A model generated the notes under the pieces. That model did no database searches. It was not told where the DNA came from and saw only the letters and a program-made list of their open reading frames with translations. The position numbers were made by a program, and so were the translations under genes. A DNA stretch of 34,728 nt from a virus. The stretch lies in UHGV virus genome UHGV-0126338. One strand, given 5' to 3'. This document shows positions 1 through 33,581 of the stretch, piece after piece; the first letter of the stretch is position 1, and every line of letters starts with the position of its first letter.

Positions 1-49
1 TTAGCAAGGTTGTGTACATTTGTACACAATTGCAGAGAGAGGAAATGAC

Positions 50-3055: not shown

Positions 3056-3087
3056 TTCGATTCTGAAATACATCAGAGGCATTGACC

Positions 3088-9684: not shown

Positions 9685-9770
9685 CGCGCGCAACTCGAGA
9701 TAGTGTGATACTTATCTGAGAAATCTTAACAAGGTTCAATACAATACCCTTTCAAAAAAAGGGGAGTGTG

Positions 9771-12011: not shown

Positions 12012-13774
12012 AAAATCTCCACAATATTGCTGGTATTGGCGGATTCACCCTGCAGCGGTTCGTTAAACAGTGCGTGCATCGTTGCCCAGGCCAGATCGGC
12101 GTGGCTGGCTTCTTCGCTGCGGCTGGCTTCATAGGTCGGGCGGTTGCCACTGGCGGTGGTGGCGCGACGGATTGCCATGAATGACTGCGCAATGTCGGTG
12201 TGCCCGGCGTCAAACTCCAGACGGCGGTGGCTGATAATGTCGTAGGCCTTGAGTACCAGGGCGTTTTTAACGTTGGGGTTGTAGACAAACTCCCGGACGG
12301 CAGGAAAGAACGCTTTCACGTTCTCATAAACCCCGTGACCAACGCCGGTTGAGTCGATGCCGATATAGGTCACGTTGTACTGTTCGGTCAGTTTTTTGAT
12401 GGCGTCAGCCTGGGCGCGAAAGTCCATCCCGCGCCACTGGTGACGCTCAAGAATGCGGAACTTGCCGCCCGGCACGGCTGGCGGTGCCACCACCACGCAT
12501 CCGGCACTGTCGCCGTTCTGCGTACCTTTCGCCGGGTCATAACCGATCCACACTTCGCGCCAGCCAAATGGGCGCAGTGCCAGTGCATGAAAGTCGGTCC
12601 AGACTTCCCAGCTGTCCACCATGCACGCCTGCAGCTCGCTGAGTGGGAACACAGACGCGAGATCGTCCACAAACTCGCACATCAGCAGGTTCTGGTATTC
12701 GTCCGGGCTGTACTCCATGCGTAACTGATCGAGGTCGAACAGGTTACATCCGCCGCGCACTGCATCTTCCACGGTGACAATCTGGCGGTATTGCCCGTCT
12801 GCGCACAGCAGGCCGGGGGCCAGATTGCTGTGGGACAGGTCGATGTCCACCTTATCTGCTTTGTTGCGCCCACGGTTGAACAGCGCACCGGACCAGAACG
12901 GATAAGCACTGTGTGTCAGGCTGGATGGCGTGGAAAAATAGGTTTGTCGCCATTTCTTGTGAATAGCCATACCGGAAGCCACTTTGCGCAGCTCCTGGAA
13001 TTTCGGTATCCAGAAATATTCATCCAGATACAGGTTGCCGTGATAACTCTGGGCCGTGCGGGCATTGGTGCCGAGGAAGTAAAGCGTGGCCCCGTTAGGA
13101 AGCACCATCGGATCGCCTTTCAACTCCACCTCCACTTCTTTGGCGAAGTCGATGATGTACTGCTTAAAGACGTGGGCCTGTGCCTTGCTGGCGGAAAGGA
13201 AAATCTGGTTACGTCCGGTCAGCAGGGCGTCAATCAGGGCTTCACGGGCAAAGTAAAAGGTCGCGCCGATCTGGCGTGACTTCAGCAGGTTGCGGATGCG
13301 GTTGGTTTTTCCGGCTTCCCACCAGTGGCGCTGGTAGTTGAACATGGAGGAATGGAAGATTTCTTCCAGCTTCTCAATCTGCTCATCGGTGAAAACATTC
13401 TTTTCCGGCTGACGGCGTGGGCCTTTGTTGCGGTTGGCGACGTTAGGGTTTAAGTCGGATTCGTTGCCGCCATTGTTAAACTTGCCGATCCGCGCGTGGC
13501 GCTCAGACTGGCGCGCCAGCAGGTCAATCTCTTTGAAATCTTTCCCTTCTTTGTGCTCCTTCATGATGAGCTGGCAGTAGCGTGCGGCGGTGGTGAGCTG
13601 CATCTGATCCAGCGGCCCATAGTCACCCCACTTGTCGCGTTTTTTCCAGCTGTGAACGGTTGCAACTTTCTCGCCCAGCATTTCAGCAATGCGGGCTACG
13701 CGGTATCCCTGAAAGTACAGCAGCATGGCCTGCCGACGGGGATCGAGATCTGCGGGTGTCAGTGTGGTGTTCAT
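12008..13774 (-). CDS. P: Terminase large (ATPase) subunit (P2 gpP-like)
   Basis: 588 aa, divergent from O, upstream of Q in the same orientation. Confidence 0.9.
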   Translation of the reverse strand: MNTTLTPADLDPRRQAMLLYFQGYRVARIAEMLGEKVATVHSWKKRDKWGDYGPLDQMQLTTAARYCQLIMKEHKEGKDFKEIDLLARQSERHARIGKFNNGGNESDLNPNVANRNKGPRRQPEKNVFTDEQIEKLEEIFHSSMFNYQRHWWEAGKTNRIRNLLKSRQIGATFYFAREALIDALLTGRNQIFLSASKAQAHVFKQYIIDFAKEVEVELKGDPMVLPNGATLYFLGTNARTAQSYHGNLYLDEYFWIPKFQELRKVASGMAIHKKWRQTYFSTPSSLTHSAYPFWSGALFNRGRNKADKVDIDLSHSNLAPGLLCADGQYRQIVTVEDAVRGGCNLFDLDQLRMEYSPDEYQNLLMCEFVDDLASVFPLSELQACMVDSWEVWTDFHALALRPFGWREVWIGYDPAKGTQNGDSAGCVVVAPPAVPGGKFRILERHQWRGMDFRAQADAIKKLTEQYNVTYIGIDSTGVGHGVYENVKAFFPAVREFVYNPNVKNALVLKAYDIISHRRLEFDAGHTDIAQSFMAIRRATTASGNRPTYEASRSEEASHADLAWATMHALFNEPLQGESANTSNIVEIF

Positions 13775-13820
13775 GGCACAAACCTACAGCCTTGAATGAA
13801 GGCTTTCCCCGCCTGCGGTT

Positions 13821-13838
13821 TGTGTGGTTGTCGGTACA
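13821..13838. promoter_or_regulatory. TGT-N12-ACA dyad (Ogr/B-type late activator site) in the divergent P/O promoter region
   Basis: TGT GTGGTTGTCGGT ACA; the only such dyad in the 142-bp P-O intergenic region; centre ~87 bp upstream of the O start codon. Confidence 0.4.
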
Positions 13839-13916
13839 AATACCGCGCATTGTTTCACTGCCCCCATCACCGCAACCATAAGGCTCCAGTAAGTTTTTTC
13901 TAACGGAGCACGGCTC

Positions 13917-14750
13917 ATGACAGTGAAAGCAAAGCGTTTTCGCATCGGGGTGGAAGGTGCCACCACCGACGGACGCGAAATCCAGCGTGAATGGCTGGAA
14001 CAGATGGCAGCCAGCTACAACCCGGCGGTGTATACCGCGCTGATTAACCTTGAGCACATCAAGTCTTATCTGCCGGACAGCACCTTTAACCGCTACGGCA
14101 AGGTGACGGCGCTGTTTGCTGAAGAAATCACGGAAGGTCCGCTGGCAGGCAAGATGGCGCTGTATGCCGACGTTGAGCCAACGGAGTCCCTGGTGGAACT
14201 GGTGAAAAAAGGCCAGAAATTATTCACCTCTATGGAAGTCAGCCCGAAGTTCGCTGATACGGGCAAAGCCTACCTGGTCGGCCTGGCTGCCACTGATGAC
14301 CCTGCCAGTCTGGGTACGGAAATGCTGACATTCAGCGCCAGTGCAGCCCATAACCCGCTGGCAAACCGCAAGCAGAATCCTGCCAATCTCTTTACCGCTG
14401 CAGAGGAAACGGTGATCGAACTGGAAGAAATCCAGGACGACAAACCGTCCCTGTTTGCCTGCGTCACGGCGCTGTTTACCAAAAAAGAGCAGTCCGATGA
14501 CGCCCGGTTCTCTGATGTGCATAAGGCCGTGGAGCTGGTCGCCACTGAGCAGCAGAACCTGAGCGCACGCACCGAAAAATCCCTGTCTGAGCAGGAAGAA
14601 CGTCTGTCTGAGCTGGAGACTGCCCTGCAGGCACAGCTGACCGCCTTTAACGAACTGGTGGACAAGCTGAGTCATGAAGACAGCCGCCAGGACTACCGCC
14701 AGCGTGCAACAGGCGGTAACGCCCCCGCTGACACTCTGACCAATTGCTGA
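13917..14750 (+). CDS. O: Capsid scaffolding protein (P2 gpO-like)
   Basis: 277 aa, first gene of the rightward head operon. Confidence 0.85.
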   Translation: MTVKAKRFRIGVEGATTDGREIQREWLEQMAASYNPAVYTALINLEHIKSYLPDSTFNRYGKVTALFAEEITEGPLAGKMALYADVEPTESLVELVKKGQKLFTSMEVSPKFADTGKAYLVGLAATDDPASLGTEMLTFSASAAHNPLANRKQNPANLFTAAEETVIELEEIQDDKPSLFACVTALFTKKEQSDDARFSDVHKAVELVATEQQNLSARTEKSLSEQEERLSELETALQAQLTAFNELVDKLSHEDSRQDYRQRATGGNAPADTLTNC

Positions 14751-14766
14751 TGGAGCACAAAACCCG

Positions 14767-15825
14767 ATGAAGAAGAATACCCGCTTTGCTTTTAACGCTT
14801 ACCTGCAGCAGCTGGCGCGTCTGAACGGTGTGGCAGTTGAAGAACTGTCCAGCAAATTCACTGTGGAGCCGTCTGTGCAGCAGACGCTGGAAGACCAGAT
14901 CCAGCAGTCCGCTGCTTTCCTGACGCTGATTAACGTCACGCCAGTGACTGAGCAGTCCGGTCAGCTGCTGGGGCTGGGTGTTGGCAGCACCATTGCCGGA
15001 ACCACTGACACCACCGCGAAAGAGCGTGAACCTGTCGATCCGACGCTGATGGTCGATGTGGAATATAAATGCGAGCAGACCAACTTTGACACGGTGCTGA
15101 CCTACGCGAAGCTGGACCTGTGGGCGAAGTTTCAGGATTTCCAGGTGCGTATCCGTGACGCCATCGTGAAACGTCAGGCACTGGACCGCATCATGATCGG
15201 CTTTAACGGCGTGAAGCGTGTGAAAACCTCCAACCGTAGTGAAAACCCGCTGCTGCAGGATGTGAACAAAGGTTGGCTGCAGAAAATCCGTGAGGATGCA
15301 CCGGATCACGTCATGGGCAGCACCACCACGGGCGGTGAAACCACACCGGGCGCGGTGAAAGTCGGGAAAGGGGGCGAATATGCCAACCTGGACGCCGTGG
15401 TGATGGATGCCGTCAATGAGCTTATCGATGTGGTCTACCAGGACGATGACGATCTGGTGGTGATTTGCGGTCGTGAACTGCTGTCTGACAAGTATTTCCC
15501 GCTAGTCAACAAAGAGCAGGAAAACAGTGAAAAACTGGCTGCCGATATGATCATCAGCCAGAAACGCATGGGGGGCCTGCAGGCCGTGCGTGCGCCGTTC
15601 TTCCCGCCGAATGCACTGCTGATTACCCGTCTGGATAACCTGTCCATCTACTGGCAGGAAGACACCCGCCGCCGTTCAGTTATCGACAACCCGAAACGTG
15701 ACCGGATTGAAAACTTTGAATCCGTTAATGAAGCCTATGTGGTTGAGGACTACCGCTGCGCCGCACTGGTGGAAAACATCCAGATTGGCGATTTCAGCGC
15801 CACTGCAGCAGAAGCCGGAGCGTAA
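14767..15825 (+). CDS. N: Major capsid protein (P2 gpN-like)
   Basis: 352 aa following the scaffold gene. Confidence 0.9.
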   Translation: MKKNTRFAFNAYLQQLARLNGVAVEELSSKFTVEPSVQQTLEDQIQQSAAFLTLINVTPVTEQSGQLLGLGVGSTIAGTTDTTAKEREPVDPTLMVDVEYKCEQTNFDTVLTYAKLDLWAKFQDFQVRIRDAIVKRQALDRIMIGFNGVKRVKTSNRSENPLLQDVNKGWLQKIREDAPDHVMGSTTTGGETTPGAVKVGKGGEYANLDAVVMDAVNELIDVVYQDDDDLVVICGRELLSDKYFPLVNKEQENSEKLAADMIISQKRMGGLQAVRAPFFPPNALLITRLDNLSIYWQEDTRRRSVIDNPKRDRIENFESVNEAYVVEDYRCAALVENIQIGDFSATAAEAGA

Positions 15826-15828
15826 CCC

Positions 15829-16479
15829 ATGAGCCTGAGTCCCGCACGGCAGCATCGCCTGCGCGTTCAGGCTGAACAGGCCGCCCGCGAGGGCGGCAGT
15901 GTTCGCCACGCGTCGGGCTATGACCTGATGCTGCTGCAACTGGCGGAAGACCGCCGCCGTCTCAAGGGCGTTCAGTCCACGGTCAAAAAAGCGGAAATCA
16001 AGGTGGAGCTGCTGCCGAAGTACGCCGCCTGGGCAGAGGGTGTCCTGGCTGCCGGAGGCGCTCAACAGGATGACGTGCTGATGTACGTGATGCTGTGGCG
16101 CATTGATGCCGGAGATTATGCCGGGGCGCTGGAGATCGGGCGTCATGCCCTGCGTCATGGCTGGGTGATGCCGCTGGGTAACCGCAACGTGCAGACCGTG
16201 CTGGCAGAGGAAATGGCAGACGCCGCACAGAGCGCAATGCTTGCCGCCACCGGCTTTGATGTCGATCTGTTGCTGCAGACGCTGGAGCTGACAGACGGTC
16301 TGGATATGCCGGACCAGTCACGGGCGCGTCTGCATAAAGCGATTGGCGCGGTCCTGAGTGAAGGCAATCCGGCGTCTGCCCTTAATCATCTCAACCATGC
16401 GTTACAGCTCGATCCCCGCTGTGGCGTGAAAAAAGACAAACAGCAGCTGGAGCGCAGACTGCGCAATGACAGCCGCTGA
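15829..16479 (+). CDS. M: Terminase endonuclease/small subunit (P2 gpM-like)
   Basis: 216 aa after N. Confidence 0.8.
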   Translation: MSLSPARQHRLRVQAEQAAREGGSVRHASGYDLMLLQLAEDRRRLKGVQSTVKKAEIKVELLPKYAAWAEGVLAAGGAQQDDVLMYVMLWRIDAGDYAGALEIGRHALRHGWVMPLGNRNVQTVLAEEMADAAQSAMLAATGFDVDLLLQTLELTDGLDMPDQSRARLHKAIGAVLSEGNPASALNHLNHALQLDPRCGVKKDKQQLERRLRNDSR

Positions 16480-16574
16480 CAGAACGTGCCCCCGCGCACG
16501 GGCGGCACGGGGTGGCGAAAGGCACTGCCACATCAAAACCCCGTCCACCGCCCTTTATTTCAGGAGAAAGCAGC

Positions 16575-17039
16575 ATGAAGTTTGTTGCGCCAGAACAGGC
16601 ACCGGAACAGGCGGAAATCATCAGAAATACGCCGTTCTGGCCTGATGTGGACCTGTCGGAGTTTCGCAGTGTCATGCGCACTGACGGCACGGTGACGCAG
16701 CCGCGTTTAAAGCAGGTTGCGCTGTCGGCAATTTCGGAGGTCAACGCAGAGCTGTATGAGTTTCGCAGACGTCAGCAGATGCTGGGGTATGTGTCGCTGG
16801 CTGAGGTTCCGGCGGAACAGCTGGACGGCAAAAGTGAGCGCATTCAGCACTATTTCAACGCGGTTTACTGCTGGGCACGCGCCATGCTCAACGAACGATA
16901 CCAGGACTATGACGCCACGGCATCCGGTGTGAAGCGAGGCGAGGAACTGGCGGAAGCCAGCGGTGATTTGTGGCGTGACGCCCGCTGGGCCATCAGCCGG
17001 GTGCAGGATGCGCCGCACTGCACAGTGGAGCTTATCTGA
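16575..17039 (+). CDS. L: Head completion/stabilisation protein (P2 gpL-like)
   Basis: ORF 16512..17039 trimmed to ATG 16575 (RBS CAGGAGAAAG). Confidence 0.8.
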   Translation: MKFVAPEQAPEQAEIIRNTPFWPDVDLSEFRSVMRTDGTVTQPRLKQVALSAISEVNAELYEFRRRQQMLGYVSLAEVPAEQLDGKSERIQHYFNAVYCWARAMLNERYQDYDATASGVKRGEELAEASGDLWRDARWAISRVQDAPHCTVELI

Positions 17040-17242
17040 TGAAAGTGTGTGCGCATCAGTATGACACGGTGGACGCGCTTTGCTGGCGTCATTACGGGCG
17101 CACGCAGGGTGTCACGGAGCAGGTACTGAAGGCAAATCCGGGGCTTGCCGAATATGGCCCCTTTTTACCTCACGGGCTGCAGGTGGAGCTGCCGGACATT
17201 CCGACCACCACCACCGTGCAGACCGTCCAGCTATGGGACTGA
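17039..17242 (+). CDS. X: Tail protein X (P2 gpX-like)
   Basis: 67 aa, same size and position as P2 X. Confidence 0.8.
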   Translation: MKVCAHQYDTVDALCWRHYGRTQGVTEQVLKANPGLAEYGPFLPHGLQVELPDIPTTTTVQTVQLWD

Positions 17243-17245
17243 ATT

Positions 17246-17461
17246 ATGACGCTTGAGCGAATCAGCGCCTTTATCACGTACTGCATCGCCGTTGTGCTGG
17301 CCTGGCTGGGCGATTTGTCCATCAAGGATGCCTCAACGCTGGGCGGCCTGATGATTGGTGTGCTGATGCTGGCTATCAACTGGTACTACAAACACAAAGC
17401 CTACCAGCTTCTGCGCGACGGGCAGATCTCGCGGGAGGACTATGAATCCATCAATCGTTAA
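17246..17461 (+). CDS. Holin (small membrane protein, possibly pinholin)
   Basis: 71 aa with hydrophobic segments, immediately upstream of the endolysin. Confidence 0.7.
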   Translation: MTLERISAFITYCIAVVLAWLGDLSIKDASTLGGLMIGVLMLAINWYYKHKAYQLLRDGQISREDYESINR

Positions 17462-17954
17462 ACGCTGCCTTGTCGGGGCCGTGCTGGCTATTGCTGCCAC
17501 GCTGCCGGGGTTTCAGCAGCTTCACACCTCCGTGGAGGGGCTGAAACTGATTGCCGATTACGAAGGCTGTCGTCTGCAGCCGTATCAGTGCAGCGCGGGC
17601 GTCTGGACCGACGGCATTGGTAACACGTCAGGCGTCATTCCCGGCAAAACCATTACGGAACGACAGGCAGCAGAAGGACTGATTTCCAACGTGCTGCGTG
17701 TGGAGCGGGCGCTGGAAAGGTGTGTGAAACAACAGCCGCCGCAGAAGGTATATGACGCTGCGGTGTCGTTTGCCTTCAACGTGGGAACGGGCAATGCCTG
17801 CAGTTCCACGCTGGTGAAATTACTCAATCAGCGGCGCTGGGCGGATGCGTGCCGACAGTTGCCGCGCTGGGTTTATGTGAAAGGTGTGTTTAATCAGGGG
17901 CTGGATAACCGCCGTGCGCGGGAGATGGCCTGGTGTTTACAGGGAGCAAACTGA
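17442..17954 (+). CDS. Endolysin, T4-lysozyme-like (GH24) with N-terminal SAR-like hydrophobic segment
   Basis: E-x8-C-x5-T catalytic pattern in DYEGCRLQPYQCSAGVWTDGIGNT; N-terminal CLVGAVLAIAATLPGF. Confidence 0.85.
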   Translation: MNPSIVKRCLVGAVLAIAATLPGFQQLHTSVEGLKLIADYEGCRLQPYQCSAGVWTDGIGNTSGVIPGKTITERQAAEGLISNVLRVERALERCVKQQPPQKVYDAAVSFAFNVGTGNACSSTLVKLLNQRRWADACRQLPRWVYVKGVFNQGLDNRRAREMAWCLQGAN

Positions 17955-17955
17955 A

Positions 17956-18333
17956 ATGAAAAAGAAATTAATCAGCGGGCTGTTTCTGATGTTATGGATG
18001 GCGCTGTTAATCGCAGCAATGGTGTATCCGCAGGGGATTTTTCCGGTACTGGCAGCGTCCGGTGTTTGGGTAGCCTGTTTACTGACATGGGCGGTAATTC
18101 CGGTAGCACTGGCTGCGTTAATTAAGAATGGCCCGCTCTGGCAGGAGTTGAGGGCATCTTTGCTGAAGACCATTACCCGAAAAGAAAACGTATTTATCAG
18201 CTGGGTGATGCGATTGCTGATTGTCGTAAGTCTCGCCTGGACGGGGTGGGCTATTACCCTGGTCTTTTATCTACTGACCGTTATTGCCTTCTGGATCACC
18301 CGTAATCAGATGGCGCAACAGGTAGCAGCATGA
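17956..18333 (+). CDS. Lysis accessory membrane protein (LysA-like)
   Basis: ORF 17884..18333 trimmed to ATG 17956; multiple predicted TM helices. Confidence 0.55.
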   Translation: MKKKLISGLFLMLWMALLIAAMVYPQGIFPVLAASGVWVACLLTWAVIPVALAALIKNGPLWQELRASLLKTITRKENVFISWVMRLLIVVSLAWTGWAITLVFYLLTVIAFWITRNQMAQQVAA

Positions 18334-18758
18334 ACCGGTTGCTGCTGGTTATGCTGGCGTTATTACTGGCGGCGCTGGGCTGGCAGACGTGGCGGCTGGC
18401 TGATGCCAGCCAGACCATCAGCACGCAGGCAGACGAGCTGCAGAGCAAAAGCCAGGCACTGGCAAAGAGCAACAGCCAGCTTATCAGGCTGTCCATTCTG
18501 ACTGAAACCAATAACCGGGAGCAGGCGCGGCTCTATGCCGACGCAGAACAGACTAGCGCACTGCTGAGACAACGACAACGCCGGATTGAGGAACTGAAAC
18601 GTGAGAACGAGGATTTACGCCGCTGGGCTGATACTCCTTTGCCTGCTGACATTATCCGGCTGCGGGAACGCCCCACACTCACCGGAGGTGCAGCTTACCG
18701 TCAGTGGTTGTCCGCGAGTGACGCCGTGTCGGCTGGATCAGGCAGCGCCGCGCACTAA
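18330..18758 (+). CDS. lysB: Spanin inner-membrane subunit (LysB / Rz-like)
   Basis: N-terminal TM helix then coiled-coil-like charged region; contains embedded lysC in +1 frame. Confidence 0.7.
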   Translation: MNRLLLVMLALLLAALGWQTWRLADASQTISTQADELQSKSQALAKSNSQLIRLSILTETNNREQARLYADAEQTSALLRQRQRRIEELKRENEDLRRWADTPLPADIIRLRERPTLTGGAAYRQWLSASDAVSAGSGSAAH

Positions 18759-18891
18759 CGGTGATTTGAACGCATTGCTGGATGAAACGGAGGCCGCCTG
18801 GGCGGTCTGTGCAGACAAAGTGGACATGATTATTGCGTGTCAGGAGCGAAACAGTGAACAAACCACAATCCCTGCGCCACGCCCTCAATAA
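18601..18891 (+). CDS. lysC: Spanin outer-membrane lipoprotein subunit (LysC / Rz1-like), partly embedded in lysB
   Basis: Lipobox LTLSGC after a signal peptide; Pro-rich; overlapping reading frame with lysB. Confidence 0.65.
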   Translation: MRTRIYAAGLILLCLLTLSGCGNAPHSPEVQLTVSGCPRVTPCRLDQAAPRTNGDLNALLDETEAAWAVCADKVDMIIACQERNSEQTTIPAPRPQ

Positions 18892-19285
18892 AGCAGTGCC
18901 TTATGTCCGAAATAACCCGGACAAACTGCATCTGTTTGTGGATAACGGTTCGCTGGTTGCCACCGGAGTCAGCTCCATGTCATGGGAGTATCGTTACACC
19001 CTGAACGTGGTGATTGAGGATTTCAGCGGCGACCAGAATCTGCTGATGGCCCCGGTTTTGCTGTGGCTGCGGGATAACCAGCCCGATGCAATCAATAACC
19101 CGGTGTTACGGGAAAAGTTATTCACCTTTGAGGTGGATATTTTGCGCAACGATGTCTGTGATATCAGCCTTAACCTGCAACTGACGGAACGTGTGCTGGT
19201 CAGCACTGACGGGACTGTGTCCAGCGTTGAAGCTGTAGCGGAACCCGATGAACCTGAAGAAGTGTGGACGGTGAAACGTGGTTGA
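18854..19285 (+). CDS. R: Tail completion protein R (P2 gpR-like)
   Basis: ORF 18833..19285; GTG 18854 preferred because RBS AGGAG lies 7 nt upstream. Confidence 0.8.
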   Translation: MNKPQSLRHALNKAVPYVRNNPDKLHLFVDNGSLVATGVSSMSWEYRYTLNVVIEDFSGDQNLLMAPVLLWLRDNQPDAINNPVLREKLFTFEVDILRNDVCDISLNLQLTERVLVSTDGTVSSVEAVAEPDEPEEVWTVKRG

Positions 19286-19721
19286 ACTGCAGAAGGTGGA
19301 CGACTGGCTGAGTGCTTTGCTGGCGAATCTGGAACCAGCCGCAAGAAGCCGCATGATGCGCCAGCTGGCGCAGGAACTTCGGCGGACACAGCAGCAGAAT
19401 ATCAGGATGCAGCGCAACCCTGACGGCAGCAGCTATGAACCGCGACGGGTAACAGCACGCAGTAAAAAAGGCCGTATCAAACGTCAGATGTTTGCAAAGC
19501 TGCGCACCACAAAATACCTGAAAACTGCCGCCAGTGCCGATTCTGCCAGCGTGCAGTTTGAAGGCAAGGTACAGCGCATTGCCCGTGTTCATCACTACGG
19601 CCTGCGTGATCGCGTCAGTCGAAATGGACCAGAAGTGCGATATGCTGAGCGGCAGTTACTTGGCATAGATTCTAAAATAACCGCCGTTATTCGTAATAAG
19701 CTATTTGAGTTTATTAAATAA
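19278..19721 (+). CDS. S: Tail completion protein S (P2 gpS-like)
   Basis: 147 aa, GTG start overlapping R stop. Confidence 0.8.
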   Translation: MVELQKVDDWLSALLANLEPAARSRMMRQLAQELRRTQQQNIRMQRNPDGSSYEPRRVTARSKKGRIKRQMFAKLRTTKYLKTAASADSASVQFEGKVQRIARVHHYGLRDRVSRNGPEVRYAERQLLGIDSKITAVIRNKLFEFIK

Positions 19722-19727
19722 AAACTC

Positions 19728-21524
19728 TCAGGATTGTGATAAATTTATTAAACATTGACAAAAATATTTAATGTCGTCACATATTTCATCTTTATTCATG
19801 TATTCCAGAACTTCATCTCGAGTAATTGAGAAATTATGTTTTAGTGAATTTTCGCCACTAATGAAAATTTCTTTTCCATGTGCGTCTTTTAAGGCTGCAG
19901 CTATATCTGTAGATGTTATCGAATCAGGGATAGCTAACGCATGCCTATCTCTAAAGAAGTTACGTATATCTTCTTCAGATGTCTCTGCAGCTCTTGCGAT
20001 GGCTGATATATCTAGAAAGTAATTTTCAATGTGTCTGCGACGCCATTTCATGGCTAAAAAATCACTATCGCCGTGATTAGTTGATTTATCTTTAAGATCT
20101 GCTCCTACAGAATGGTCGCTATCATCATCACGATCGCGCATGCTAATGGCTTTTAAGTCAGGAATTTCATTTTTTAATTGTTTGTATAATTGAAACCTTT
20201 CTGAAGATTTTCCAGTCCAAAGCCATGTGACAATATTTTTTGGCCATGTTAGTTCTAACTTTTTAAATATTTTTTTTAGGAATCTTTCATCGCTAACACC
20301 TTCAACAATCAACAATCTTTTGTCTTCGGTAAGTTTATGGATTTTGGGGCTAAAGATCGTGCCAATTCCACTTAATAGACCTATTTTTTCATTATCAGAT
20401 CCAAGGTATTTCCCTCTAGAATTTGATAGTGCCAAAATTTTCTGTGGTTCATAAGCCCTGATTAACTCAGTAGAGTGTGTTGCCAATAGGACCTGCTTTC
20501 CTTTTTTAATTGTTATCTCTTCTAAACGTTCAGTTAGATTTTTCTGTAATTGTGTATGTAGGTGAGCATCTGGTTCATCTAGTAGAATGACATTAAATTC
20601 TTCTGATAAGGCCAATGTATATACACTTAACCATTGAAGAAAACCGCTTCCTTCAACCATAATATCTCTAGCATTGAAGTTTTTGTGTTTTTTAAATTGA
20701 TAACCATTGACAACGCCAGCGACACATTCAATTTTTAAGTAACTATGATATTGTTCATTAAATGGAGTTACTTCAAGTTTTAAAGAAAAAAGGTCAAAGA
20801 GTGTTTTTTGTAATATTTCCCAAGGGTCTGTTTCCCTTAATAAATTAAGGTCTTTATTGGCGATTTTGTTTCGCCCTTCTTTTAACCTCCGGCGTTTGTT
20901 TTGATTCTCTAGGTGAATATCGTAAATAGAATTTCTGATTACTCCACCAGAAAGCCCCTGACCGATTAGTCGATTCCTCATTGCTGGGCTAAGACGGCTT
21001 TCTCGGTCTGTAATACCTGCAAATGGAGGGAGATAAGCTATCTGGGGTATATTCTCATTATTTGGAGAACCATCGTCATTCTGTATTTCTTGTAAAGCAA
21101 GGTTGCTAGATGTATTTTTTATAAATAATCTATCATTTGCTAATGATAAACCGATCTCTAAAAACTTCTCATTTTTTAAACTATCATCCCAAAAAAGCTT
21201 TATCTTTAGAGTATAACCATCATCTTCTGTTTGTTTTTGAGATTTTAAATTGGTCCATAAGTGGCTTAAAGACGGTATAAACATCGGCGTGAAATCGACA
21301 ATGCCTAGTCCGACACCTTGATTTGTCGCATTTTCAGTCCAACTCACTCTTCCTTTTTCAATTTCTAAAAGAGTCTTACAGAATTGCCACGTTGCCATTG
21401 CTTGCAGTAACGATGATTTACCGGAATTGTTCCCGCCGACCAGGAGGCTTAATTCGTCATTTAATTGTATTGTTGAGTTTTTATATTTTTTGAATTTCTT
21501 AAGCTCTACTTTTTTTATGTACAT
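19728..21524 (-). CDS. OLD-family ATP-dependent nuclease (N-terminal ABC-type ATPase + C-terminal Toprim), P2 Old-like
   Basis: Walker A GGNNSGKS (aa 30-37), signature-like LSGG (~aa 191), Walker B ILLDEPDAHLH (~aa 313-323), H-loop ATHS, Toprim motifs LLIVEGVSDE (~aa 405-412) and RDRDDD (~aa 463-468, nt ~20121..20138); 598 aa; AT-rich; antisense to the tail operon. Confidence 0.8.
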   Translation of the reverse strand: MYIKKVELKKFKKYKNSTIQLNDELSLLVGGNNSGKSSLLQAMATWQFCKTLLEIEKGRVSWTENATNQGVGLGIVDFTPMFIPSLSHLWTNLKSQKQTEDDGYTLKIKLFWDDSLKNEKFLEIGLSLANDRLFIKNTSSNLALQEIQNDDGSPNNENIPQIAYLPPFAGITDRESRLSPAMRNRLIGQGLSGGVIRNSIYDIHLENQNKRRRLKEGRNKIANKDLNLLRETDPWEILQKTLFDLFSLKLEVTPFNEQYHSYLKIECVAGVVNGYQFKKHKNFNARDIMVEGSGFLQWLSVYTLALSEEFNVILLDEPDAHLHTQLQKNLTERLEEITIKKGKQVLLATHSTELIRAYEPQKILALSNSRGKYLGSDNEKIGLLSGIGTIFSPKIHKLTEDKRLLIVEGVSDERFLKKIFKKLELTWPKNIVTWLWTGKSSERFQLYKQLKNEIPDLKAISMRDRDDDSDHSVGADLKDKSTNHGDSDFLAMKWRRRHIENYFLDISAIARAAETSEEDIRNFFRDRHALAIPDSITSTDIAAALKDAHGKEIFISGENSLKHNFSITRDEVLEYMNKDEICDDIKYFCQCLINLSQS

Positions 21525-21614
21525 AGTGGAGATACCTAACCTTTATTAAACCAAATCGCCTCATCATGAGAACTGGGACAGTTTACTATCTACTGAATTG
21601 TTTCTAAAGAGAAT

Positions 21615-21632
21615 TGTATCAAGTTCCAGACA
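21615..21632. promoter_or_regulatory. TGT-N12-ACA dyad (late activator site) upstream of V
   Basis: TGT ATCAAGTTCCAG ACA, centre ~57 bp upstream of the V start codon. Confidence 0.4.
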
Positions 21633-21680
21633 ATTACAATCCATTTTGGACACGCCCAATATGTGGCAATTTTTTAAGCT

Positions 21681-22259
21681 ATGAACGCACAATTAACCGA
21701 AATCATGCGCCTTATCACCAACCTGATCCGCACTGGGGTAGTCACCGAAGTGGACCGGGAGAACTGGCTTTGCCGGGTGAAAACGGGCGACCTTGAAACC
21801 AACTGGATCAGCTGGCTGACGCTGCGTGCCGGGAATGCCCGCACATGGTGGCGACCATCGGAAGGTGAACAGGTGGTGCTGCTGAGTCTGGGCGGAAATC
21901 TTGAAACCGCCTTTGCGCTGCCCGCCATCTATTCGAATCAGTTCGCACCACCGTCGACGTCGGCGGACGCCTGCGTGACAGAACATCCTGACGGTGGCTG
22001 GTTTGAATACGAACCCGCCACCGGGCGCTGGTATGTCAGAGGCATCAAATCAATGGTCATTGAGGCCGCTGACAACATCACCTTGAAAACCAGTGAGTTT
22101 GTGCTGGAGGCTGACCGCACGCGTATTAACAGCGAAGTGGCGATCAATGGTGGCGTTACCCAGGGCGGCGGTGCGATGAGTTCTAACGGGATCGTGGTTG
22201 ATGCGCATCAGCATACTGGCGTCCTGAAAGGCGGTGATACTACCGGAGGCCCGGTTTGA
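21681..22259 (+). CDS. V: Baseplate spike/assembly protein V (P2 gpV-like)
   Basis: 192 aa; N-terminus aligns by eye with P2 V. Confidence 0.85.
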   Translation: MNAQLTEIMRLITNLIRTGVVTEVDRENWLCRVKTGDLETNWISWLTLRAGNARTWWRPSEGEQVVLLSLGGNLETAFALPAIYSNQFAPPSTSADACVTEHPDGGWFEYEPATGRWYVRGIKSMVIEAADNITLKTSEFVLEADRTRINSEVAINGGVTQGGGAMSSNGIVVDAHQHTGVLKGGDTTGGPV

Positions 22260-22615
22260 CGCTTTATATCGGTATGAATAATACCAGCGGTAAAGCCATT
22301 ACTGATATTGACCATCTGCGCCAGTCGGTGCGGGACATTCTGCTGACGCCGCAGGGTAGCCGCATTGCCCGTCGGGAATATGGTTCTCTGCTGTCGGCAC
22401 TGATAGATCAGCCACAAAATCCGGCGTTACGCCTGCAGGTCATGTCGGCTGTGTATGTGGCACTGAGTCGCTGGGAGCCACGGCTGACGCTGGATTCCAT
22501 CACTATTAACAGCAATTTTGACGGTTCAATGGTGGTGGAGCTGACCGGGCGGCGGAATAACGGTGTGCCTGTGTCCCTTTCCGTATCAACAGGAGCAGAG
22601 AATGGCAGTGATTGA
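22256..22615 (+). CDS. W: Baseplate protein W (P2 gpW / gp25-like)
   Basis: 119 aa, overlapping start with V stop. Confidence 0.85.
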   Translation: MTLYIGMNNTSGKAITDIDHLRQSVRDILLTPQGSRIARREYGSLLSALIDQPQNPALRLQVMSAVYVALSRWEPRLTLDSITINSNFDGSMVVELTGRRNNGVPVSLSVSTGAENGSD

Positions 22616-23510
22616 CCTTTCGCAGTTGCCTGCACCGCAGATTGTGGATGTGCCGGACTTTGAGACGCTGCTTGCCGAACGCAAGGCAGAATTTGTGGCG
22701 CTTCATCCGAAAGATGAGCAGGAAGCAGTGATCCGCACGCTGGAACTGGAATCTGAACCAGTCACCAAATTGTTGCAGGAGAACGCTTACCGTGAGTTGC
22801 TTCTGCGCCAGCGCATTAACGAAGCCGCGCAGGCGGTGATGGTGGCTTACGCGATGGGCGGCGATCTTGACCAGCTCGCTGCCAACTACAACGTGAAACG
22901 CCTGACGGTGACGCCTGCTGATAATGACGCTGTGCCGCCCGTTGCGGCTGTGATGGAAAGCGATGAAGCGTTACGCCTGCGTGTGCCTGCAGCCTTTGAA
23001 GGGCTTTCGGTTGCGGGGCCAACTGCCGCTTATGAATTTCATGCCCGAAGCGCCGACGGTCGGGTGGCGGATGCCAGTGCAACCAGCCCGGCACCTGCAG
23101 AGGTGGTGCTGACTGTCCTTAGCCGCGAAGGCGACGGAACTGCAGAAAAAGACTTGCTGGATGTGGTGGAGAACGCCCTGAACAGTGAGAACGTCCGCCC
23201 GGTGGCTGACCGTCTGACGGTTCGCAGCGCAGAAATCATCCCGTACCGAGTGGAAGCCACCATTTTTCTTTATCCGGGACCGGAAGCAGAGCCGGTAATG
23301 GCAGCGGCAAAAGCCAGCCTGCAGAAGTACATCGCCAGTCAGACGCGTCTTGGTCGGGATATTCGCCGTAGCGCCATCTTTGCCGCCCTGCATGTTGAGG
23401 GTGTGCAGCGTGTGGAGCTGGCTTCCCCTCTGGCGGATGTGGTCCTGAACAAAACACAGGCGGCATCATGTACGCAGTGGAGCGTAACCAACGGAGGAAC
23501 GGATGAATAG
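22602..23510 (+). CDS. J: Baseplate protein J (P2 gpJ-like)
   Basis: ORF 22563..23510 trimmed to ATG 22602 (RBS AGGAG). Confidence 0.85.
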   Translation: MAVIDLSQLPAPQIVDVPDFETLLAERKAEFVALHPKDEQEAVIRTLELESEPVTKLLQENAYRELLLRQRINEAAQAVMVAYAMGGDLDQLAANYNVKRLTVTPADNDAVPPVAAVMESDEALRLRVPAAFEGLSVAGPTAAYEFHARSADGRVADASATSPAPAEVVLTVLSREGDGTAEKDLLDVVENALNSENVRPVADRLTVRSAEIIPYRVEATIFLYPGPEAEPVMAAAKASLQKYIASQTRLGRDIRRSAIFAALHVEGVQRVELASPLADVVLNKTQAASCTQWSVTNGGTDE

Positions 23511-24108
23511 TCTGCTGCCACCGGGTTCAACGCCACTGGAGCGCCGACTGGCGCAAGCGTGCAGCGGGATTTCTGATTTGCAGGTGCCGCTGCGTGACCT
23601 GTGGGATCCGGCGACCTGTCCGGTCAGTTTCCTGCCTTATCTCGCCTGGGCGTTCTCTGTGGATCGCTGGGACGAGGGCTGGACAGAAAGCGTCAAGCGC
23701 CAGGTGGTGAAGGATGCTTTTTATATTCATCAGCATAAAGGAACCACCAGTGCCGTGCGGCGGGTGGTGGAGCCGTTCGGCTTCCTGATACGAATTATTG
23801 AGTGGTGGCAGACTGGAGAAACACCGGGCACGTTTCGCCTGGACATCGGCGTGCAGGACCAGGGCATCACTGAAGATACCTATCTGGAACTTGAGCGGCT
23901 GATAAGCGATGCCAAACCATGTAGCCGTCACATGATCGGCATGTCCATCAATCTGCAAACTAGTGGCCCGCACTGGGTAGGGGCCGCCAGCTATCTTGGT
24001 GAAGAAATCACGATCTATCCGTATATCAACGAAACAATTATTTCTGGCGGCACCGCGCATGAAGGCGGGGCGGTCCATGTTATTGACACAATGAGAGTGA
24101 ATCCATGA
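23503..24108 (+). CDS. I: Baseplate/tail protein I (P2 gpI-like)
   Basis: 201 aa between J and the tail fibre gene. Confidence 0.8.
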   Translation: MNSLLPPGSTPLERRLAQACSGISDLQVPLRDLWDPATCPVSFLPYLAWAFSVDRWDEGWTESVKRQVVKDAFYIHQHKGTTSAVRRVVEPFGFLIRIIEWWQTGETPGTFRLDIGVQDQGITEDTYLELERLISDAKPCSRHMIGMSINLQTSGPHWVGAASYLGEEITIYPYINETIISGGTAHEGGAVHVIDTMRVNP

Positions 24109-25652
24109 GCACAAAATTTTATACCTTGCTGACGGATATTGGCGCGGCGAAACTTGCCAGCGCCGCCGCGCTCGGTGTGCCGTTAAAAATTACCCATATG
24201 GCGGTAGGCGATGGCGGCGGAACATTACCAACGCCGGACGCAAAGCAGACTGCACTGGTAAATGAGAAACGCCGGGCTGCGCTGAATATGCTCTATATCG
24301 ACCCGCAAAACAGCAGCCAGATTATTGCTGAACAGGTGATCCCTGAAAACGAAGGCGGTTGGTGGATACGTGAAGTGGGCCTGTTTGATGAATCCGGGGC
24401 ATTGATTGCCGTGGGCAACTGCCCGGAAAGCTATAAGCCGCAACTGGCTGAAGGCAGCGGGCGCACCCAGACCGTGCGCATGGTGCTGATTACCAGCAGC
24501 ACGGACAATATCACCCTGAAAATCGACCCTGCCGTCGTGCTGGCAACCCGCAAGTATGTGGATGATAAGGTACTGGAGCTGAAGGTGTACGTGGATGATC
24601 AGATGGCAAAACATCTTGCAGCACCGGACCCGCATTCACAGTATGCACCCAAAGAAAGCCCTATGTTTACCGGGACACCCAAAGCGCCAACGCCAGCGGC
24701 GGGGAATAACACCACGCAGGTTGCGACCACCGCGTTTGTTCAGGTGGCACTGACGGCTCTTATTAATGGTGCGCCAGCCACGCTGGACACGCTGAAAGAA
24801 ATTGCCGCAGCCATAAACAATGACCCGAAATTCAGTACCACCATTAACAATGCGCTGGCACTGAAAGCGCCGCTGTTAAGTCCGGCACTCACCGGAACGC
24901 CAACAGCCCCCACTGCCGCACAGTCGGTTAACAATACACAGATTGCCACCACGGCTTTTGTGAAATCGGCAATTGCGGCAATGGTGGGGTCTGCACCTGC
25001 TGCACTGGATACACTGAACGAACTGGCTGCGGCGCTGGGGAATGACCCGAACTTTGCCACGACAATGCTTAATGCGCTGGCAGGTAAACAACCGCTGGAC
25101 AATACGCTGACTAATTTGAGTGGAAAGGATGTAGCTGGTCTTCTCGCATACCTTGGTTTGGGAGAAGGCTCAGCGTTACCCGTTGGTGTGCCTGTTCCGT
25201 GGCCTTCAGCCACACCACCAACAGGCTGGCTGAAATGCAACGGTGCACCTTTTTCTGCCGAAGAGTACCCAAAACTGGCAAAGGCTTACCCAAAGTTAAA
25301 ATTACCGGATTTGCGCGGTGAGTTTATTCGCGGGTGGGATGATGGGCGAGGTGTTGATTCCGCGAGACTGCTGCTTTCAAGTCAGGCAGCATCTATCCTT
25401 GAACATAACCATGAAATGCATGGATGGACAGGGAACCCACTCATGGCTAGAGATGTTGGTGAATTAGGTACATCATCCGTATTTGCGGTGCAGTTGAGCA
25501 TTGGCGATGGCGGGTTATTGTATTCGTGGAAGGATGGGAGTGGAACAACAAATGACAGTAAACGAATGGATAGAACAAATCATGTCAGTTCCGGCGCCGG
25601 TGATGGTAGCCCGCGAAACATTGCATTTAACTACATTGTGAGGGCTGCATAA
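24105..25652 (+). CDS. H: Tail fibre protein H (constant N-terminal part; C-terminal ~162 aa lies inside the invertible segment)
   Basis: 515 aa with Ala/Thr-rich repeated fibre segments; recombination site at 25141..25166 inside the gene. Confidence 0.85.
   Translation: MSTKFYTLLTDIGAAKLASAAALGVPLKITHMAVGDGGGTLPTPDAKQTALVNEKRRAALNMLYIDPQNSSQIIAEQVIPENEGGWWIREVGLFDESGALIAVGNCPESYKPQLAEGSGRTQTVRMVLITSSTDNITLKIDPAVVLATRKYVDDKVLELKVYVDDQMAKHLAAPDPHSQYAPKESPMFTGTPKAPTPAAGNNTTQVATTAFVQVALTALINGAPATLDTLKEIAAAINNDPKFSTTINNALALKAPLLSPALTGTPTAPTAAQSVNNTQIATTAFVKSAIAAMVGSAPAALDTLNELAAALGNDPNFATTMLNALAGKQPLDNTLTNLSGKDVAGLLAYLGLGEGSALPVGVPVPWPSATPPTGWLKCNGAPFSAEEYPKLAKAYPKLKLPDLRGEFIRGWDDGRGVDSARLLLSSQAASILEHNHEMHGWTGNPLMARDVGELGTSSVFAVQLSIGDGGLLYSWKDGSGTTNDSKRMDRTNHVSSGAGDGSPRNIAFNYIVRAA
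25141..25166. repeat. Left inversion crossover site (gix/hix/pix-like)
   Basis: TTCTCGCATACCTTGGTTTGGGAGAA; its 14-bp end TTGGTTTGGGAGAA is an exact inverted copy of the end of the site at 27052..27077. Confidence 0.6.
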
Positions 25653-26255
25653 ATGGAACAGGCTATTTTGGGAAAAGACGGTTACGCTTTAAATGATGGG
25701 GAAATCATCGTACATAACTATGATGGCGAAACGCGGGAATATATTTCTACATCAACTGAATATCTCGCTGTCGGAGTCGGTATCCCGGCATGTTCCTGTC
25801 TGGATGCACCAGGTACACATAAAGCTGGTTATGCAATCTGTCGCTCTGTAGATTTAAATTCATGGGAATATGTGCCAGACCATCGCGGTGAAACGGTCTA
25901 TAGCACCAAAACAGGAGAATCAAAAGAAATCACCGCTCCGGGTGATTACCCTGAAAATACAACCACTATCGCCCCATTAACGCCATACGATAAATGGGAT
26001 GGTGAGAAATGGGTGACCGATACTGAGGCACAGCATAGCGCCGCAGTAGACGCGGCAGAAGCACAGCGCCAGTCACTGATTGATGCTGCAATGGCTTCCA
26101 TTAGTCTGATTCAACTGAAATTGCAGGCCGGACGTAAACTGACGCAGGCAGAAACAACCAGACTTAACGCTGTGCTGGATTACATTGACGCGGTGACGGC
26201 AACAGATACCAGCACCGCGCCGGATGTCATCTGGCCTGAACTGCCGGAGGCGTAG
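25653..26255 (+). CDS. G: Tail fibre assembly chaperone (P2 gpG-like), active orientation
   Basis: 200 aa immediately after H; C-terminus ...APDVIWPELPEA. Confidence 0.8.
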   Translation: MEQAILGKDGYALNDGEIIVHNYDGETREYISTSTEYLAVGVGIPACSCLDAPGTHKAGYAICRSVDLNSWEYVPDHRGETVYSTKTGESKEITAPGDYPENTTTIAPLTPYDKWDGEKWVTDTEAQHSAAVDAAEAQRQSLIDAAMASISLIQLKLQAGRKLTQAETTRLNAVLDYIDAVTATDTSTAPDVIWPELPEA

Positions 26256-26670
26256 GCCATTCAATATCTGGCGCACTGGAGGTATCAACCAGCTCCAGTG
26301 CATCCAGATAATCCAGCCACAAATTATATTGCGCCAGTTCCTCACCTTTCAGACGACCAATAGCGGCTTTACCGGGCCATTGCTTACTGTTCATGTATTC
26401 GTTGGCCTGGTTAATTAGTAGCTGTCTTTCTGATTCAGTAATTTCAATAAGCTCTTCATGCGTGGGTGGAGGAATATCTGCCCACGCAGGCAGCCCATCA
26501 TCTCCGGCAATACGGATTTTTCCTTGTGGCGGTTCAGCCATAAACTCACTGATAATATTTTGATTTACTTCCTTAGCGTCTGATAAATCCCATCCCTCTG
26601 ATTTATATTTATCAATCATATCCACAGGGAAAAAAGCATTATGCCTTGCGCTATAAACATATTCGTTCAT
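26227..26670 (-). CDS. Alternative tail fibre assembly chaperone (silent orientation within the invertible segment)
   Basis: Minus-strand ORF 26227..26679 trimmed to ATG 26670; C-terminus ...APDIEWPTPPAVQAR parallels G; tail-to-tail overlap with G. Confidence 0.7.
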   Translation of the reverse strand: MNEYVYSARHNAFFPVDMIDKYKSEGWDLSDAKEVNQNIISEFMAEPPQGKIRIAGDDGLPAWADIPPPTHEELIEITESERQLLINQANEYMNSKQWPGKAAIGRLKGEELAQYNLWLDYLDALELVDTSSAPDIEWPTPPAVQAR

Positions 26671-26690
26671 ATAAATCACCCTGAATAAAA

Positions 26691-27077
26691 TTACTCACCA
26701 ACAGCCCACCAACTGTAATTCATCGATACCGTGTCGCTGGTTGATGACGTTCTGTAAGCAGAATTAAAGCCGGTTAACGTTGGGCCTTCTGCAGTCATCA
26801 CGAACCCTCGCCCAGCGCCTAAAGGCGCACCGCCATCACCAGAATGAGTAAGCATGGCGCAGTCCGCTTTTTTGGGGAAAGGGATGCTGAATGTAATTCT
26901 CATTGTTTGCGTCGATAATGTCGGCGTAACCGCACCACGACCATATTGCAGGATTTTCCCGTTGGGTAATTTCATCCATCCATCACCACTGGCAAAAGAG
27001 GCCATGTCCGGTATCTGATTTTCCCCTGTCCCCACATCCCGTTTTGCCGCTTCTCCCAAACCAACGTTTATGAAAAT
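26691..27077 (-). other. Promoterless alternative tail-fibre C-terminal cassette (alternative H variable part), in frame through the right crossover site
   Basis: Minus-strand frame encodes ...VGLGEAAKRDVG... across the site, matching ...YLGLGEGSALPVG... at the left site in H; ends at stop 26691. Confidence 0.6.
27052..27077. repeat. Right inversion crossover site
   Basis: TTCTCCCAAACCAACGTTTATGAAAA; inverted relative to 25141..25166; resembles hix/gix-type sites. Confidence 0.6.
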
Positions 27078-27131
27078 GCAGAGATAACGGCTAACAGGCA
27101 TCATCTCCGGTTTTTATTCAGGGGGATGATC

Positions 27132-27698
27132 ATGCTTATTGGCTATGTACGCGTGTCAACAAATGACCAGAACACCGATTTGCAACGCAATGCACTGAAC
27201 TGTGCGGGATGTGAGCGGATTTTTGAGGATAAAATCAGTGGCACCAAGTCCGACAGACCGGGGCTGAAAAAGCTGCTCAGGACACTATCGGCAGGAGACA
27301 CTCTGGTTGTCTGGAAGCTGGACAGGTTGGGGCGCAGTATGCGGCATCTTGTTACGCTGATAGAAGAGTTGCGTCAGCGTGGCGTGAATTTCCGAAGCCT
27401 GACTGACAGTATTGATACCAGTACCCCAATGGGCCGTTTCTTTTTTCATGTCATGGGTGCCCTGGCTGAAATGGAACGCGAACTGATAGTTGAACGTACC
27501 AGGGCAGGGCTGGCTGCAGCTCGTGCCAAAGGCAGAGTAGGTGGACGCCGTCCTAAGTTGACCACCGAACAGTGGGCACAGATTGGGCGTTTACTCGAGG
27601 CCGGAGAATCAATACAGCGTATTGCACTGATTTTTGATGTAGGCGTTTCTACCATTTATAGAAAATTTCCGGCAAATAAGATCAATGAATCCCCCTGA
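27132..27698 (+). CDS. Serine DNA invertase (Gin/Hin/Pin/Cin family)
   Basis: MLIGYVRVSTNDQ... catalytic serine motif and C-terminal HTH; near-identical N-terminus to Mu Gin from memory; ORF 27126..27698 with ATG 27132 preferred. Confidence 0.9.
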   Translation: MLIGYVRVSTNDQNTDLQRNALNCAGCERIFEDKISGTKSDRPGLKKLLRTLSAGDTLVVWKLDRLGRSMRHLVTLIEELRQRGVNFRSLTDSIDTSTPMGRFFFHVMGALAEMERELIVERTRAGLAAARAKGRVGGRRPKLTTEQWAQIGRLLEAGESIQRIALIFDVGVSTIYRKFPANKINESP

Positions 27699-27746
27699 AT
27701 CAGCATTATGTTGATTATCCCTGCAAGCAGACAAATACCGTTATTT

Positions 27747-27764
27747 TGTGTGAATAACGACACA
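27747..27764. promoter_or_regulatory. TGT-N12-ACA dyad (late activator site) upstream of FI
   Basis: TGT GTGAATAACGAC ACA, centre ~85 bp upstream of the FI start codon. Confidence 0.45.
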
Positions 27765-27840
27765 ACTGCGCTTAGCTGTTTGTCAGGCACAATCACTTCA
27801 ACATAGGGCGAAGCCTAATCCAATCAGGAGGTTCGCCACT

Positions 27841-33099: not shown

Positions 33100-33581
33100 T
33101 GATGGTGCTGGGATTGTACGTGTTTATGCTGCGCACCGTTCCGTATCAGGAACTGCAGTATCAACGCAGCTGGCGACATGCGGCAAACAGTCGGGTAAAC
33201 CGACGTCCGTCTACGCAGTTTCTGGGACCGGAAAACGACATGCTGACGCTTTCCGGTGTTCTTATGCCGGAAATAACAGGCGGCAGGCTGTCGTTGCTGG
33301 CACTGGAGCAGATGGCAGAACAGGGGAAAGCATGGCCCCTGATTGAAGGCAGCGGCACGATTTACGGCATGTATGTGATTGAGGGACTGAATCAGACTAA
33401 AACGGAGTTTTTCCGCGATGGTATGCCGCGCCGGATTGAGTTCACCCTGTCGCTCAAACGGGTGGATGAATCCCTGTCCGATATGTTCGGTGATCTCAGT
33501 GCGCAGCTGAATAATTTGCAGGATACGACAACGTCTGCCTTAAGCGATATCAGTAAAACGGTGGGAGGGCTGCTGTCGTGA
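33096..33581 (+). CDS. U: Tail protein U (P2 gpU-like)
   Basis: 161 aa overlapping T stop. Confidence 0.85.
   Translation: MMMVLGLYVFMLRTVPYQELQYQRSWRHAANSRVNRRPSTQFLGPENDMLTLSGVLMPEITGGRLSLLALEQMAEQGKAWPLIEGSGTIYGMYVIEGLNQTKTEFFRDGMPRRIEFTLSLKRVDESLSDMFGDLSAQLNNLQDTTTSALSDISKTVGGLLS

Follow-up and report, generated by a model that had tools for sequence, protein, structure and literature searches.

We analyzed the UHGV virus genome UHGV-0126338, a stretch of 34,728 nucleotides referred to below as the window, which the listing of its open reading frames (ORFs), Pfam and database comparison identify as a P2/186-like prophage (Peduoviridae). We conclude with high confidence that three exact TGT-N12-ACA dyads found in it serve as activator boxes upstream of this P2/186-type prophage's four late promoters. 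This reading is based on the homologous annotated sites of P2 and 186, on distances that stay fixed in unrelated sequence contexts, on -10-like hexamers at the P2 offset, and on promoters devoid of a -35 element. As in P2 and 186, the box between P and O is common to two promoters, so that three boxes would serve the four promoters pP, pO, pV and pF.

Using a pattern scan of the whole window, we found exact TGT-N12-ACA at 13821..13838, 21615..21632 and 27747..27764, that is, in the intergenic regions between P and O, between an OLD-like gene and V, and between a serine invertase gene and FI. Together with the Pfam identities of the neighboring genes, the scan confirms the claim of an earlier sequence-only reading of this DNA that exact dyads stand in short intergenic regions before late operons. 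The distances from dyad centre to start codon, given there as about 57-87 base pairs (bp), were measured as 87.5 (O), 55.5 (P), 57.5 (V) and 85.5 (FI) bp. The whole window holds seven TGT-N12-ACA matches against 8.77 expected, in keeping with the rate of about one per 4 kb put forward earlier and without any global enrichment; the remaining four lie at 11 (host flank), 13763 (across the P start codon), 29057 (FII coding sequence) and 31052 (T coding sequence). Since three of the seven fall into short zones before late operons, the signal of the 6-base dyad lies in its position and not in its window-wide count. The joint chance of a match in all three promoter zones of about 70-140 bp is 2e-6 to 3e-5, depending on zone size, which bears out the earlier view that three copies in exactly these positions are meaningful. 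The full-window scan for enrichment proposed at that time thus revealed clustering at late promoters and no excess overall, and an equal density of the motif in coding regions, which had been named as an argument against the idea, was not found in any simple sense.

A longer form of the element separates the late-promoter sites more sharply. All three extend to TTGT-N12-ACAA, a pattern with four exact matches in the whole window against 0.71 expected, a number that none of 100 shuffles reached, and within the prophage it occurs at the three late-promoter sites only. The fourth match, TTGTGTACATTTGTACACAA at 10..29, lies in host DNA just ahead of a TetR-family gene. It is perfectly palindromic and is probably the operator of that TetR-family regulator, unrelated to the phage.

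To what extent the element is retained was determined in related loci. A scan of viral contigs with gpV yielded 80 loci with V at least 97% identical, in mosaic surroundings, and the comparison of V-upstream DNA covered 82 loci with 24 distinct sequences, falling into 11 clusters with unrelated spacers (between-cluster spacer identity below 70%). Exact TGT-N12-ACA began 63-66 bp before the V ATG in 82/82 loci, with differing N12 and flanks; the chance of such retention across the 11 contexts is about 1e-33, if the contexts are independent. Similarly, an exact dyad was observed at -91 to -94 from the FI ATG in all 42 loci with FI (24 distinct sequences, two unrelated spacer families), and at -96 from O in 71/71 loci. 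Among close variants (20 at P/O), substitutions fell within N12 (13828 and 13830; 27750 and 27759-27761) and in the flanks, and none was seen in the TTGT/ACAA arms or in the predicted -10 hexamers. When 35 distinct sites were pooled, the T before TGT was invariant, an A followed ACA in 32 of the 35, and R-Y followed TTGT; on these base preferences the half-site is approximately TTGTRY, and the box is best written TTGT-N12-ACAA. Taken together, the V, FI and O loci indicate an element under selection, conserved in relatives independently of its flanking sequence.

The geometry extends to the core promoters. At all four window promoters, the first base of a NANNNT hexamer is found 43.5-44.5 bp away from the centre of the box (Table 1). 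In the second, unrelated family of FI-upstream sequences, GAACAT stands at an offset identical to that of CAACAT in the window, and all 11 unrelated V contexts carry NANNNT at 42.5-44.5 bp (chance about 1.5e-6, at a background of 0.11 per position), with the V ATG 54.5-57.5 bp from the box centre in every one of them. No -35-containing sigma-70 promoter was detected on the operon strand at any box by consensus scans, and in a relaxed scan hexamer pairs using the predicted -10s matched at most 6/12.

From this arrangement, and by analogy with P2, start sites are expected at about 13774(-), 13886(+), 21680-21681(+) and 27811(+). The pO leader is accordingly predicted to comprise about 31 nucleotides (nt), with GGAG before the O ATG at 13917, and the pF leader about 30 nt, with AGGAGG. 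The V mRNA is predicted to be leaderless, starting near the A of the V ATG and without a Shine-Dalgarno sequence; no Shine-Dalgarno-like sequence was seen in 10 of the 11 V contexts. The P start codon, the same one as annotated in Escherichia phage 500465-1, is separated from the box centre by exactly 55.5 bp, and the P-Q mRNA is therefore likewise predicted to be leaderless, starting on the A of that codon at about 13774. For both P and V, 55.5-57.5 bp separate the start codon from a box centre, and a -10-like hexamer occupies -12..-7; upstream of P there is only a weak AGG, inside the predicted -10.

In the mechanism that we propose, an activator of the Ogr/B/Delta family, a Cys4 zinc-finger protein of 72 residues encoded 3' of D, would bind each of the boxes, whose centres lie about 55-57 bp before the predicted transcription starts, and would recruit host sigma-70 RNA polymerase to promoters that possess only a weak -10 and no -35. 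The P/O box would work both ways, leftward for pP and rightward for pO, the V box would drive pV, and the FI box would drive pF. We infer by analogy with the known systems that the activator binds the boxes and contacts the alpha subunit of the polymerase, that transcription occurs late, and at which positions exactly it starts.

Candidates for the activator gene come from relatives. The final 429 bases of the window are matched at 100% identity by Klebsiella phage KP12. In the KP12 record, directly after D, a gene labeled OGR protein begins 41 bp beyond the point where the window stops. The product has 72 residues with a CX2C-X22-CX4C arrangement, matches Pfam Ogr_Delta (PF04606) at 5e-22, and is 51% identical to P2 Ogr and 54% identical to 186 B. 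Phage 500465-1 shows the same arrangement, with an Ogr_Delta gene after D (PF04606 at 5e-22 and 9e-21 for the proteins of the two phages). A 75-residue ORF within the window, at 4661..4888, has no CX2C-X22-CX4C, and its position and size are those of the DksA-like zinc-finger genes in the P2 and 186 records.

Several observations weigh against the assignment of the dyads as activator boxes. The window itself contains no Ogr-like ORF, and the literal 6-base dyad is not enriched over its length. The annotated boxes of P2 and 186 are themselves not literal TGT-N12-ACA: those of P2 are partial, with TGT-N12-CCA at pP/pO and at pF and TTGT-N11-ACAA at pV, and those of 186 read TGT-N12-CCA, whereas the window boxes are perfect TTGT-N12-ACAA. 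Given these deviations, an exact match is neither necessary nor sufficient, and the consensus is loose; the earlier proposal that the dyads follow the recognition pattern of Ogr/B-type activators is supported by their positions, geometry and conservation, and the literal string does not carry over to the annotated boxes. Furthermore, NANNNT is a very weak motif on which to assign -10 hexamers, and better-looking hexamers, CATAAG at pO and CATAGG at pF, occur 3 bp downstream and would shift the start sites by about 3 nt. Finally, both the start sites and activator binding are placed by analogy.

Additional sites resembling the box were evaluated and set aside. A second dyad, TGTGGTGTTCATGGCACA at 13763..13780, 58 bp from the P/O box, was rejected as an activator site, since its ACA arm is variable at position 13779 among close relatives and the element is missing from P2; it is probably a chance match. 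An independent pP box on the right-hand side of the P/O dyad was also considered. The best candidate, TTGT-N12-ATCA at 13850..13869, is mismatched at two arm positions and is not accompanied by a -10 at the correct offset; this option was dropped in view of the sharing of one box that is documented for P2 and 186. Allowing one mismatch in the box added a single intergenic candidate, TTATCCCTGCAAGCAGACAA at 27715..27734, 31 bp upstream of the FI box, which is not present in the second FI-upstream family of relatives and is probably not essential. The decamer ACAAATACCG is common to the right end of this candidate (27731..27740) and to the right flank of the P/O box (13836..13845). Between the P/O box and the predicted pP -10 lies a hairpin, AGCCTT-GAATG-AAGGCT (13788..13804), with point variants in relatives at 13789, 13790, 13797 and 13800.

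The V box borders a region of exchangeable cargo. The best PADLOC match of the OLD-like gene is AriAB, the fused PARIS ATPase-Toprim (1e-25), followed by GajA and other OLD-family models, and judged from these sequence matches the label 'OLD-like' is fair. The cargo region 19600-21700 had no match in the phage collection, and the OLD-like cargo of the window is shared only with one IMG/VR locus (L015). In relatives the S-V junction is a cargo hotspot with at least 10 different inserts, in which the main ORF is always divergent from V (related loci L004-L083), and one cluster of relatives is cargo-free, with a 77-bp S-V gap in which the box is kept. The interval down to the V ATG is cassette-specific, and each cassette has its own exact Ogr box and a -10 at the same distance.

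These features raise the question of whether the V box acts in both directions and places the OLD-like (AriAB-like) gene under late Ogr control, as the sequence-only reading had suggested in proposing that the shared dyad could couple the two. Its symmetric dyad, the 99.5 bp that separate the box centre from the OLD-like ATG and leave room for a promoter, and the precedent of the P/O box with its two divergent promoters would favor such coupling. In contrast, no leftward NANNNT was found at 42.5-44.5 bp from the V box centre, where the hexamers are CTGTCC, TGTCCC and GTCCCA, and for want of this element at the required offset we rejected a leftward promoter of P2 type that would lead from the V box into the OLD-like gene. 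A separate leftward sigma-70 candidate with a -35, TTTAGA-17-TAAACT, starting at about 21573, would put the V box near -50.5, out of phase by half a helical turn. In relatives, moreover, the box centre and the cargo start codon are 9.5-99.5 bp apart, mostly too near for a -55 arrangement. The geometry thus gives the proposed coupling no support, and we regard a bidirectional V box as quite improbable.

Within the pV spacer, weak leftward sigma-70 candidates were noted in cargo-bearing contexts, namely in the window (21634..21685, minus strand) and in L004, L008, L016, L025, L027, L078 and L080. The window candidate is TTCATA-16-CATATT, in which the -35 corresponds to the V start TATGAA read on the opposite strand. 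No leftward promoter candidate was found in the pV spacer of the cargo-free context. These matches are only suggestive of cargo promoters that overlap the pV spacer, the DNA being AT-rich and the matches weak. A further model, which we consider unlikely though somewhat less so than a bidirectional V box, is that in the cassettes, which hold mostly candidate defence genes, recruitment of polymerase to pV or Ogr bound in the cargo 5' leader would silence (or turn on) the defence gene at late development, the P-Q mRNA being leaderless like that of V. If true, anti-phage cargo would have a built-in regulatory link to the late switch.

As an alternative to phage activator boxes, the dyads might be sites of a host regulator, either CRP (TGTGA-N6-TCACA) or a PpsR/CrtJ-type protein. 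Positions 27749..27764 of the FI box read TGTGA-ATAACG-ACACA and match 9/10 CRP consensus positions, and the published PpsR/CrtJ motif string is also TGT-N12-ACA. CRP spacing, however, corresponds to TGT-N10-ACA and not to N12, so that the dyads do not qualify as CRP sites; the V and P/O boxes have no TGTGA/TCACA cores, and relatives conserve TTGT/ACAA at N12. The near-CRP core in the FI box is probably a by-product of its TGTG/CACA arms. PpsR/CrtJ proteins, for their part, come from purple photosynthetic bacteria and not from Klebsiella and Escherichia, the hosts of the relatives, and the dyads stand where the P2 and 186 records annotate Ogr/B boxes. A host regulator is therefore a very improbable explanation.

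We give still less credence to the view that the dyads are recombination or cassette-boundary signals, serving S-V cargo exchange or the invertase, even with the V box at the edge of a hotspot with at least 10 cassettes and the serine invertase gene ending 49 bp before the FI box. Relatives free of cassettes retain the box in their 77-bp gap, there is one box per cassette and not one per end, P/O has the same element with neither cassette nor invertase, and the constant spacing of the box from a -10-like hexamer and from the start codon is a property of promoters. The weakest explanation, chance, by which a string expected about once per 4 kb happens to be intergenic three times, is next to negligible: the window count does not exceed expectation, the four other matches lie in coding DNA or in the host flank and the one at 13763 loses its ACA arm in close relatives, but the joint positional probability, the shuffles for TTGT-N12-ACAA and the fixed-distance dyad in 11 unrelated V contexts and 2 FI contexts, which are not copies of one sequence, all argue against it.

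Assigning the dyads as activator boxes has practical consequences. Four late promoters, with predicted start sites, can be annotated with confidence in a prophage lineage common in Klebsiella and E. coli. The literal TGT-N12-ACA is informative only when position is considered, and the half-site TTGTRY together with the fixed box-to-(-10) distance can be used for late-promoter annotation across Peduoviridae. Promoter architecture is always preserved during S-V cargo exchange, a point relevant to payload engineering at that site. There is some novelty in the strict distances from box to -10 and from box to ATG across unrelated cassettes, in the predicted leaderless P mRNA, and in the possible interlock between cargo promoters and pV.

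The coordinates of the features are compiled in Table 1. In the late region, identity is about 96% both with Escherichia phage 500465-1, of the genus Wadgaonvirus, and with many Klebsiella prophages. At the window start, the host flank with its TetR-family gene (20..586, Pfam TetR_N/TetR_C) adjoins the integrated prophage; matches to phage records start at about 603-617, the left prophage edge, and the prophage proper was taken from about 603.

Table 1. Activator boxes, predicted -10 hexamers and genes of the prophage, in window coordinates
Feature	Position	Strand	Remarks
Activator box common to divergent pP (P-Q operon) and pO (O-N-M-L...S operon)	13820..13839	.	TTGTGTGGTTGTCGGTACAA, centre 13829.5
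Activator box of pV (V-W-J-I-H-G operon)	21614..21633	.	TTGTATCAAGTTCCAGACAA, centre 21623.5
Activator box of pF (FI-FII-E-T-U-D operon)	27746..27765	.	TTGTGTGAATAACGACACAA, centre 27755.5
pP -10, predicted	13781..13786	-	TAGGTT, offset 43.5; invariant in relatives; P2 pP TAGCCT at equal offset
pO -10, predicted	13874..13879	+	AACCAT, offset 44.5; invariant in relatives; geometry as P2 pO
pV -10, predicted	21667..21673	+	CAATTT/AATTTT, offsets 43.5/44.5
pF -10, predicted	27799..27804	+	CAACAT, offset 43.5; invariant in close variants
int	691..1899	-	
cI, 186-type	2139..2714	-	then apl, cII (186-type immunity region)
Replication gene A	5739..8153		
Q	10974..12011	-	
P, terminase large subunit, first gene of leftward late operon	12008..13774	-	Pfam Terminase_6N/6C/Terminase_5
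O, capsid scaffold/protease, first gene of pO operon	13917..14750	+	Pfam Phage_GPO, 2e-112
S, last of O-to-S series	19278..19721	+	Pfam
OLD-family ATPase-Toprim gene	19728..21524	-	Pfam
V, baseplate spike, first gene of pV operon	21681..22259	+	Pfam Phage_base_V and GpV Apex motif
Tail-fibre genes			3' of V series, before FI
Serine invertase	27126..27698	+	Resolvase and HTH_7; part of invertible segment
FI, tail sheath, first gene of pF operon	27841..29013	+	Pfam Phage_sheath_1/1C
D	33578..34678	+	window end 50 bp past D stop codon

Two further regions of the prophage were noted. The tail-fibre region 24105..27698 is laid out like an invertible segment, with H and G on the plus strand, the invertase at 27126..27698, and two alternative minus-strand ORFs at 26227..26679 and 26691..27104; it occupies the position of P2 Z/fun, directly 5' of the FI box. 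Between the replication region and Q, at the position of P2 old/tin, a 384-residue ORF (9768..10922, plus strand) is a second candidate for defence cargo, with weak PADLOC matches to PD-Lambda-3_B (2e-14) and to a HEPN model.

For comparison with the known systems, activator-site coordinates of P2 and 186 were taken from their annotated records. The promoter sequences of the window did not align with those of P2 or 186 when the three promoter regions were submitted to MAFFT, their divergence being too great, and the alignment was misleading, for example pairing GACAAATA upstream of the window FI box with one downstream of that of P2; it was discarded in favor of annotated coordinates and distances. 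The P2 record places activator sites at 3057-3087 ('pO, pP promoters'), 10239-10266 (pV) and 17555-17583 (pF), and the 186 record places B-protein sites at 3798-3817 (common to the divergent p12/pV) and 14091-14110 (pJ). The window dyads occupy homologous positions and precede the same four operons as in P2.

Start sites mapped for P2 pP and pO, 3016(-) and 3127(+), are each 55.5 bp from the box centre at 3071.5, those of pF are at 17626-17628, and that of pV is annotated on the first base of the V coding sequence. The -10 hexamers of P2 are TAGCCT (pP), GAAACT (pO), CAATCT (pV) and GAAAAT (pF), with NANNNT 43.5-44.5 bp from the box centre. The window resembles P2 in its weak -10, the lack of a -35 and the predicted V start on the V ATG, and its relatives KP12 and 500465-1, like P2, have an activator gene 3' of D. 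Alongside the start-site annotation of the P2 record, we take the P2 V mRNA to be leaderless; a literature search on a leaderless P2 gene V returned nothing.

The two phages also differ in detail. The P-O intergenic region measures 142 bp in the window and 173 bp in P2, the distance from the box centre to the FI ATG is 85.5 versus 82.5 bp, and the P mRNA of P2 has a 23-nt leader, whereas the pP start of the window is predicted on the P ATG. The immunity region of the window (cI, apl, cII) is of 186 type. Upstream of 186 orf32, the V homologue, a half-site, TTGTGTGA, is centred about 56.5 bp from the ATG, at a place where the 186 record annotates no box.

Other activator systems provide additional points of reference. 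Ogr/Delta zinc-finger activators, among them P4 Delta and Serratia NucC, act on TGT-N12-ACA-type boxes near -55; the window contains no P4-like element or NucC target. At class I CRP promoters, an upstream dyad is combined with a poor or absent -35 and with an activator that contacts the alpha subunit of RNA polymerase, an analogy suggested by Ogr/rpoA genetics. They differ from the window boxes in the protein family, in the spacing (N10-equivalent versus N12) and in the position of the site (-61.5 versus about -55.5). In published accounts, TGT-N12-ACA is the stated consensus of the four Ogr-dependent late promoters of P2, and in phage Smp131 one site is read both ways for PP'/PO' (PMC3931495); P4 Delta is described as an Ogr homologue that activates the late genes of P2 and P4 (PMC8628076). 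Overall, the late promoters of this prophage are a new instance of a well-known regulatory architecture, and the current view of P2-type late control is unchanged.

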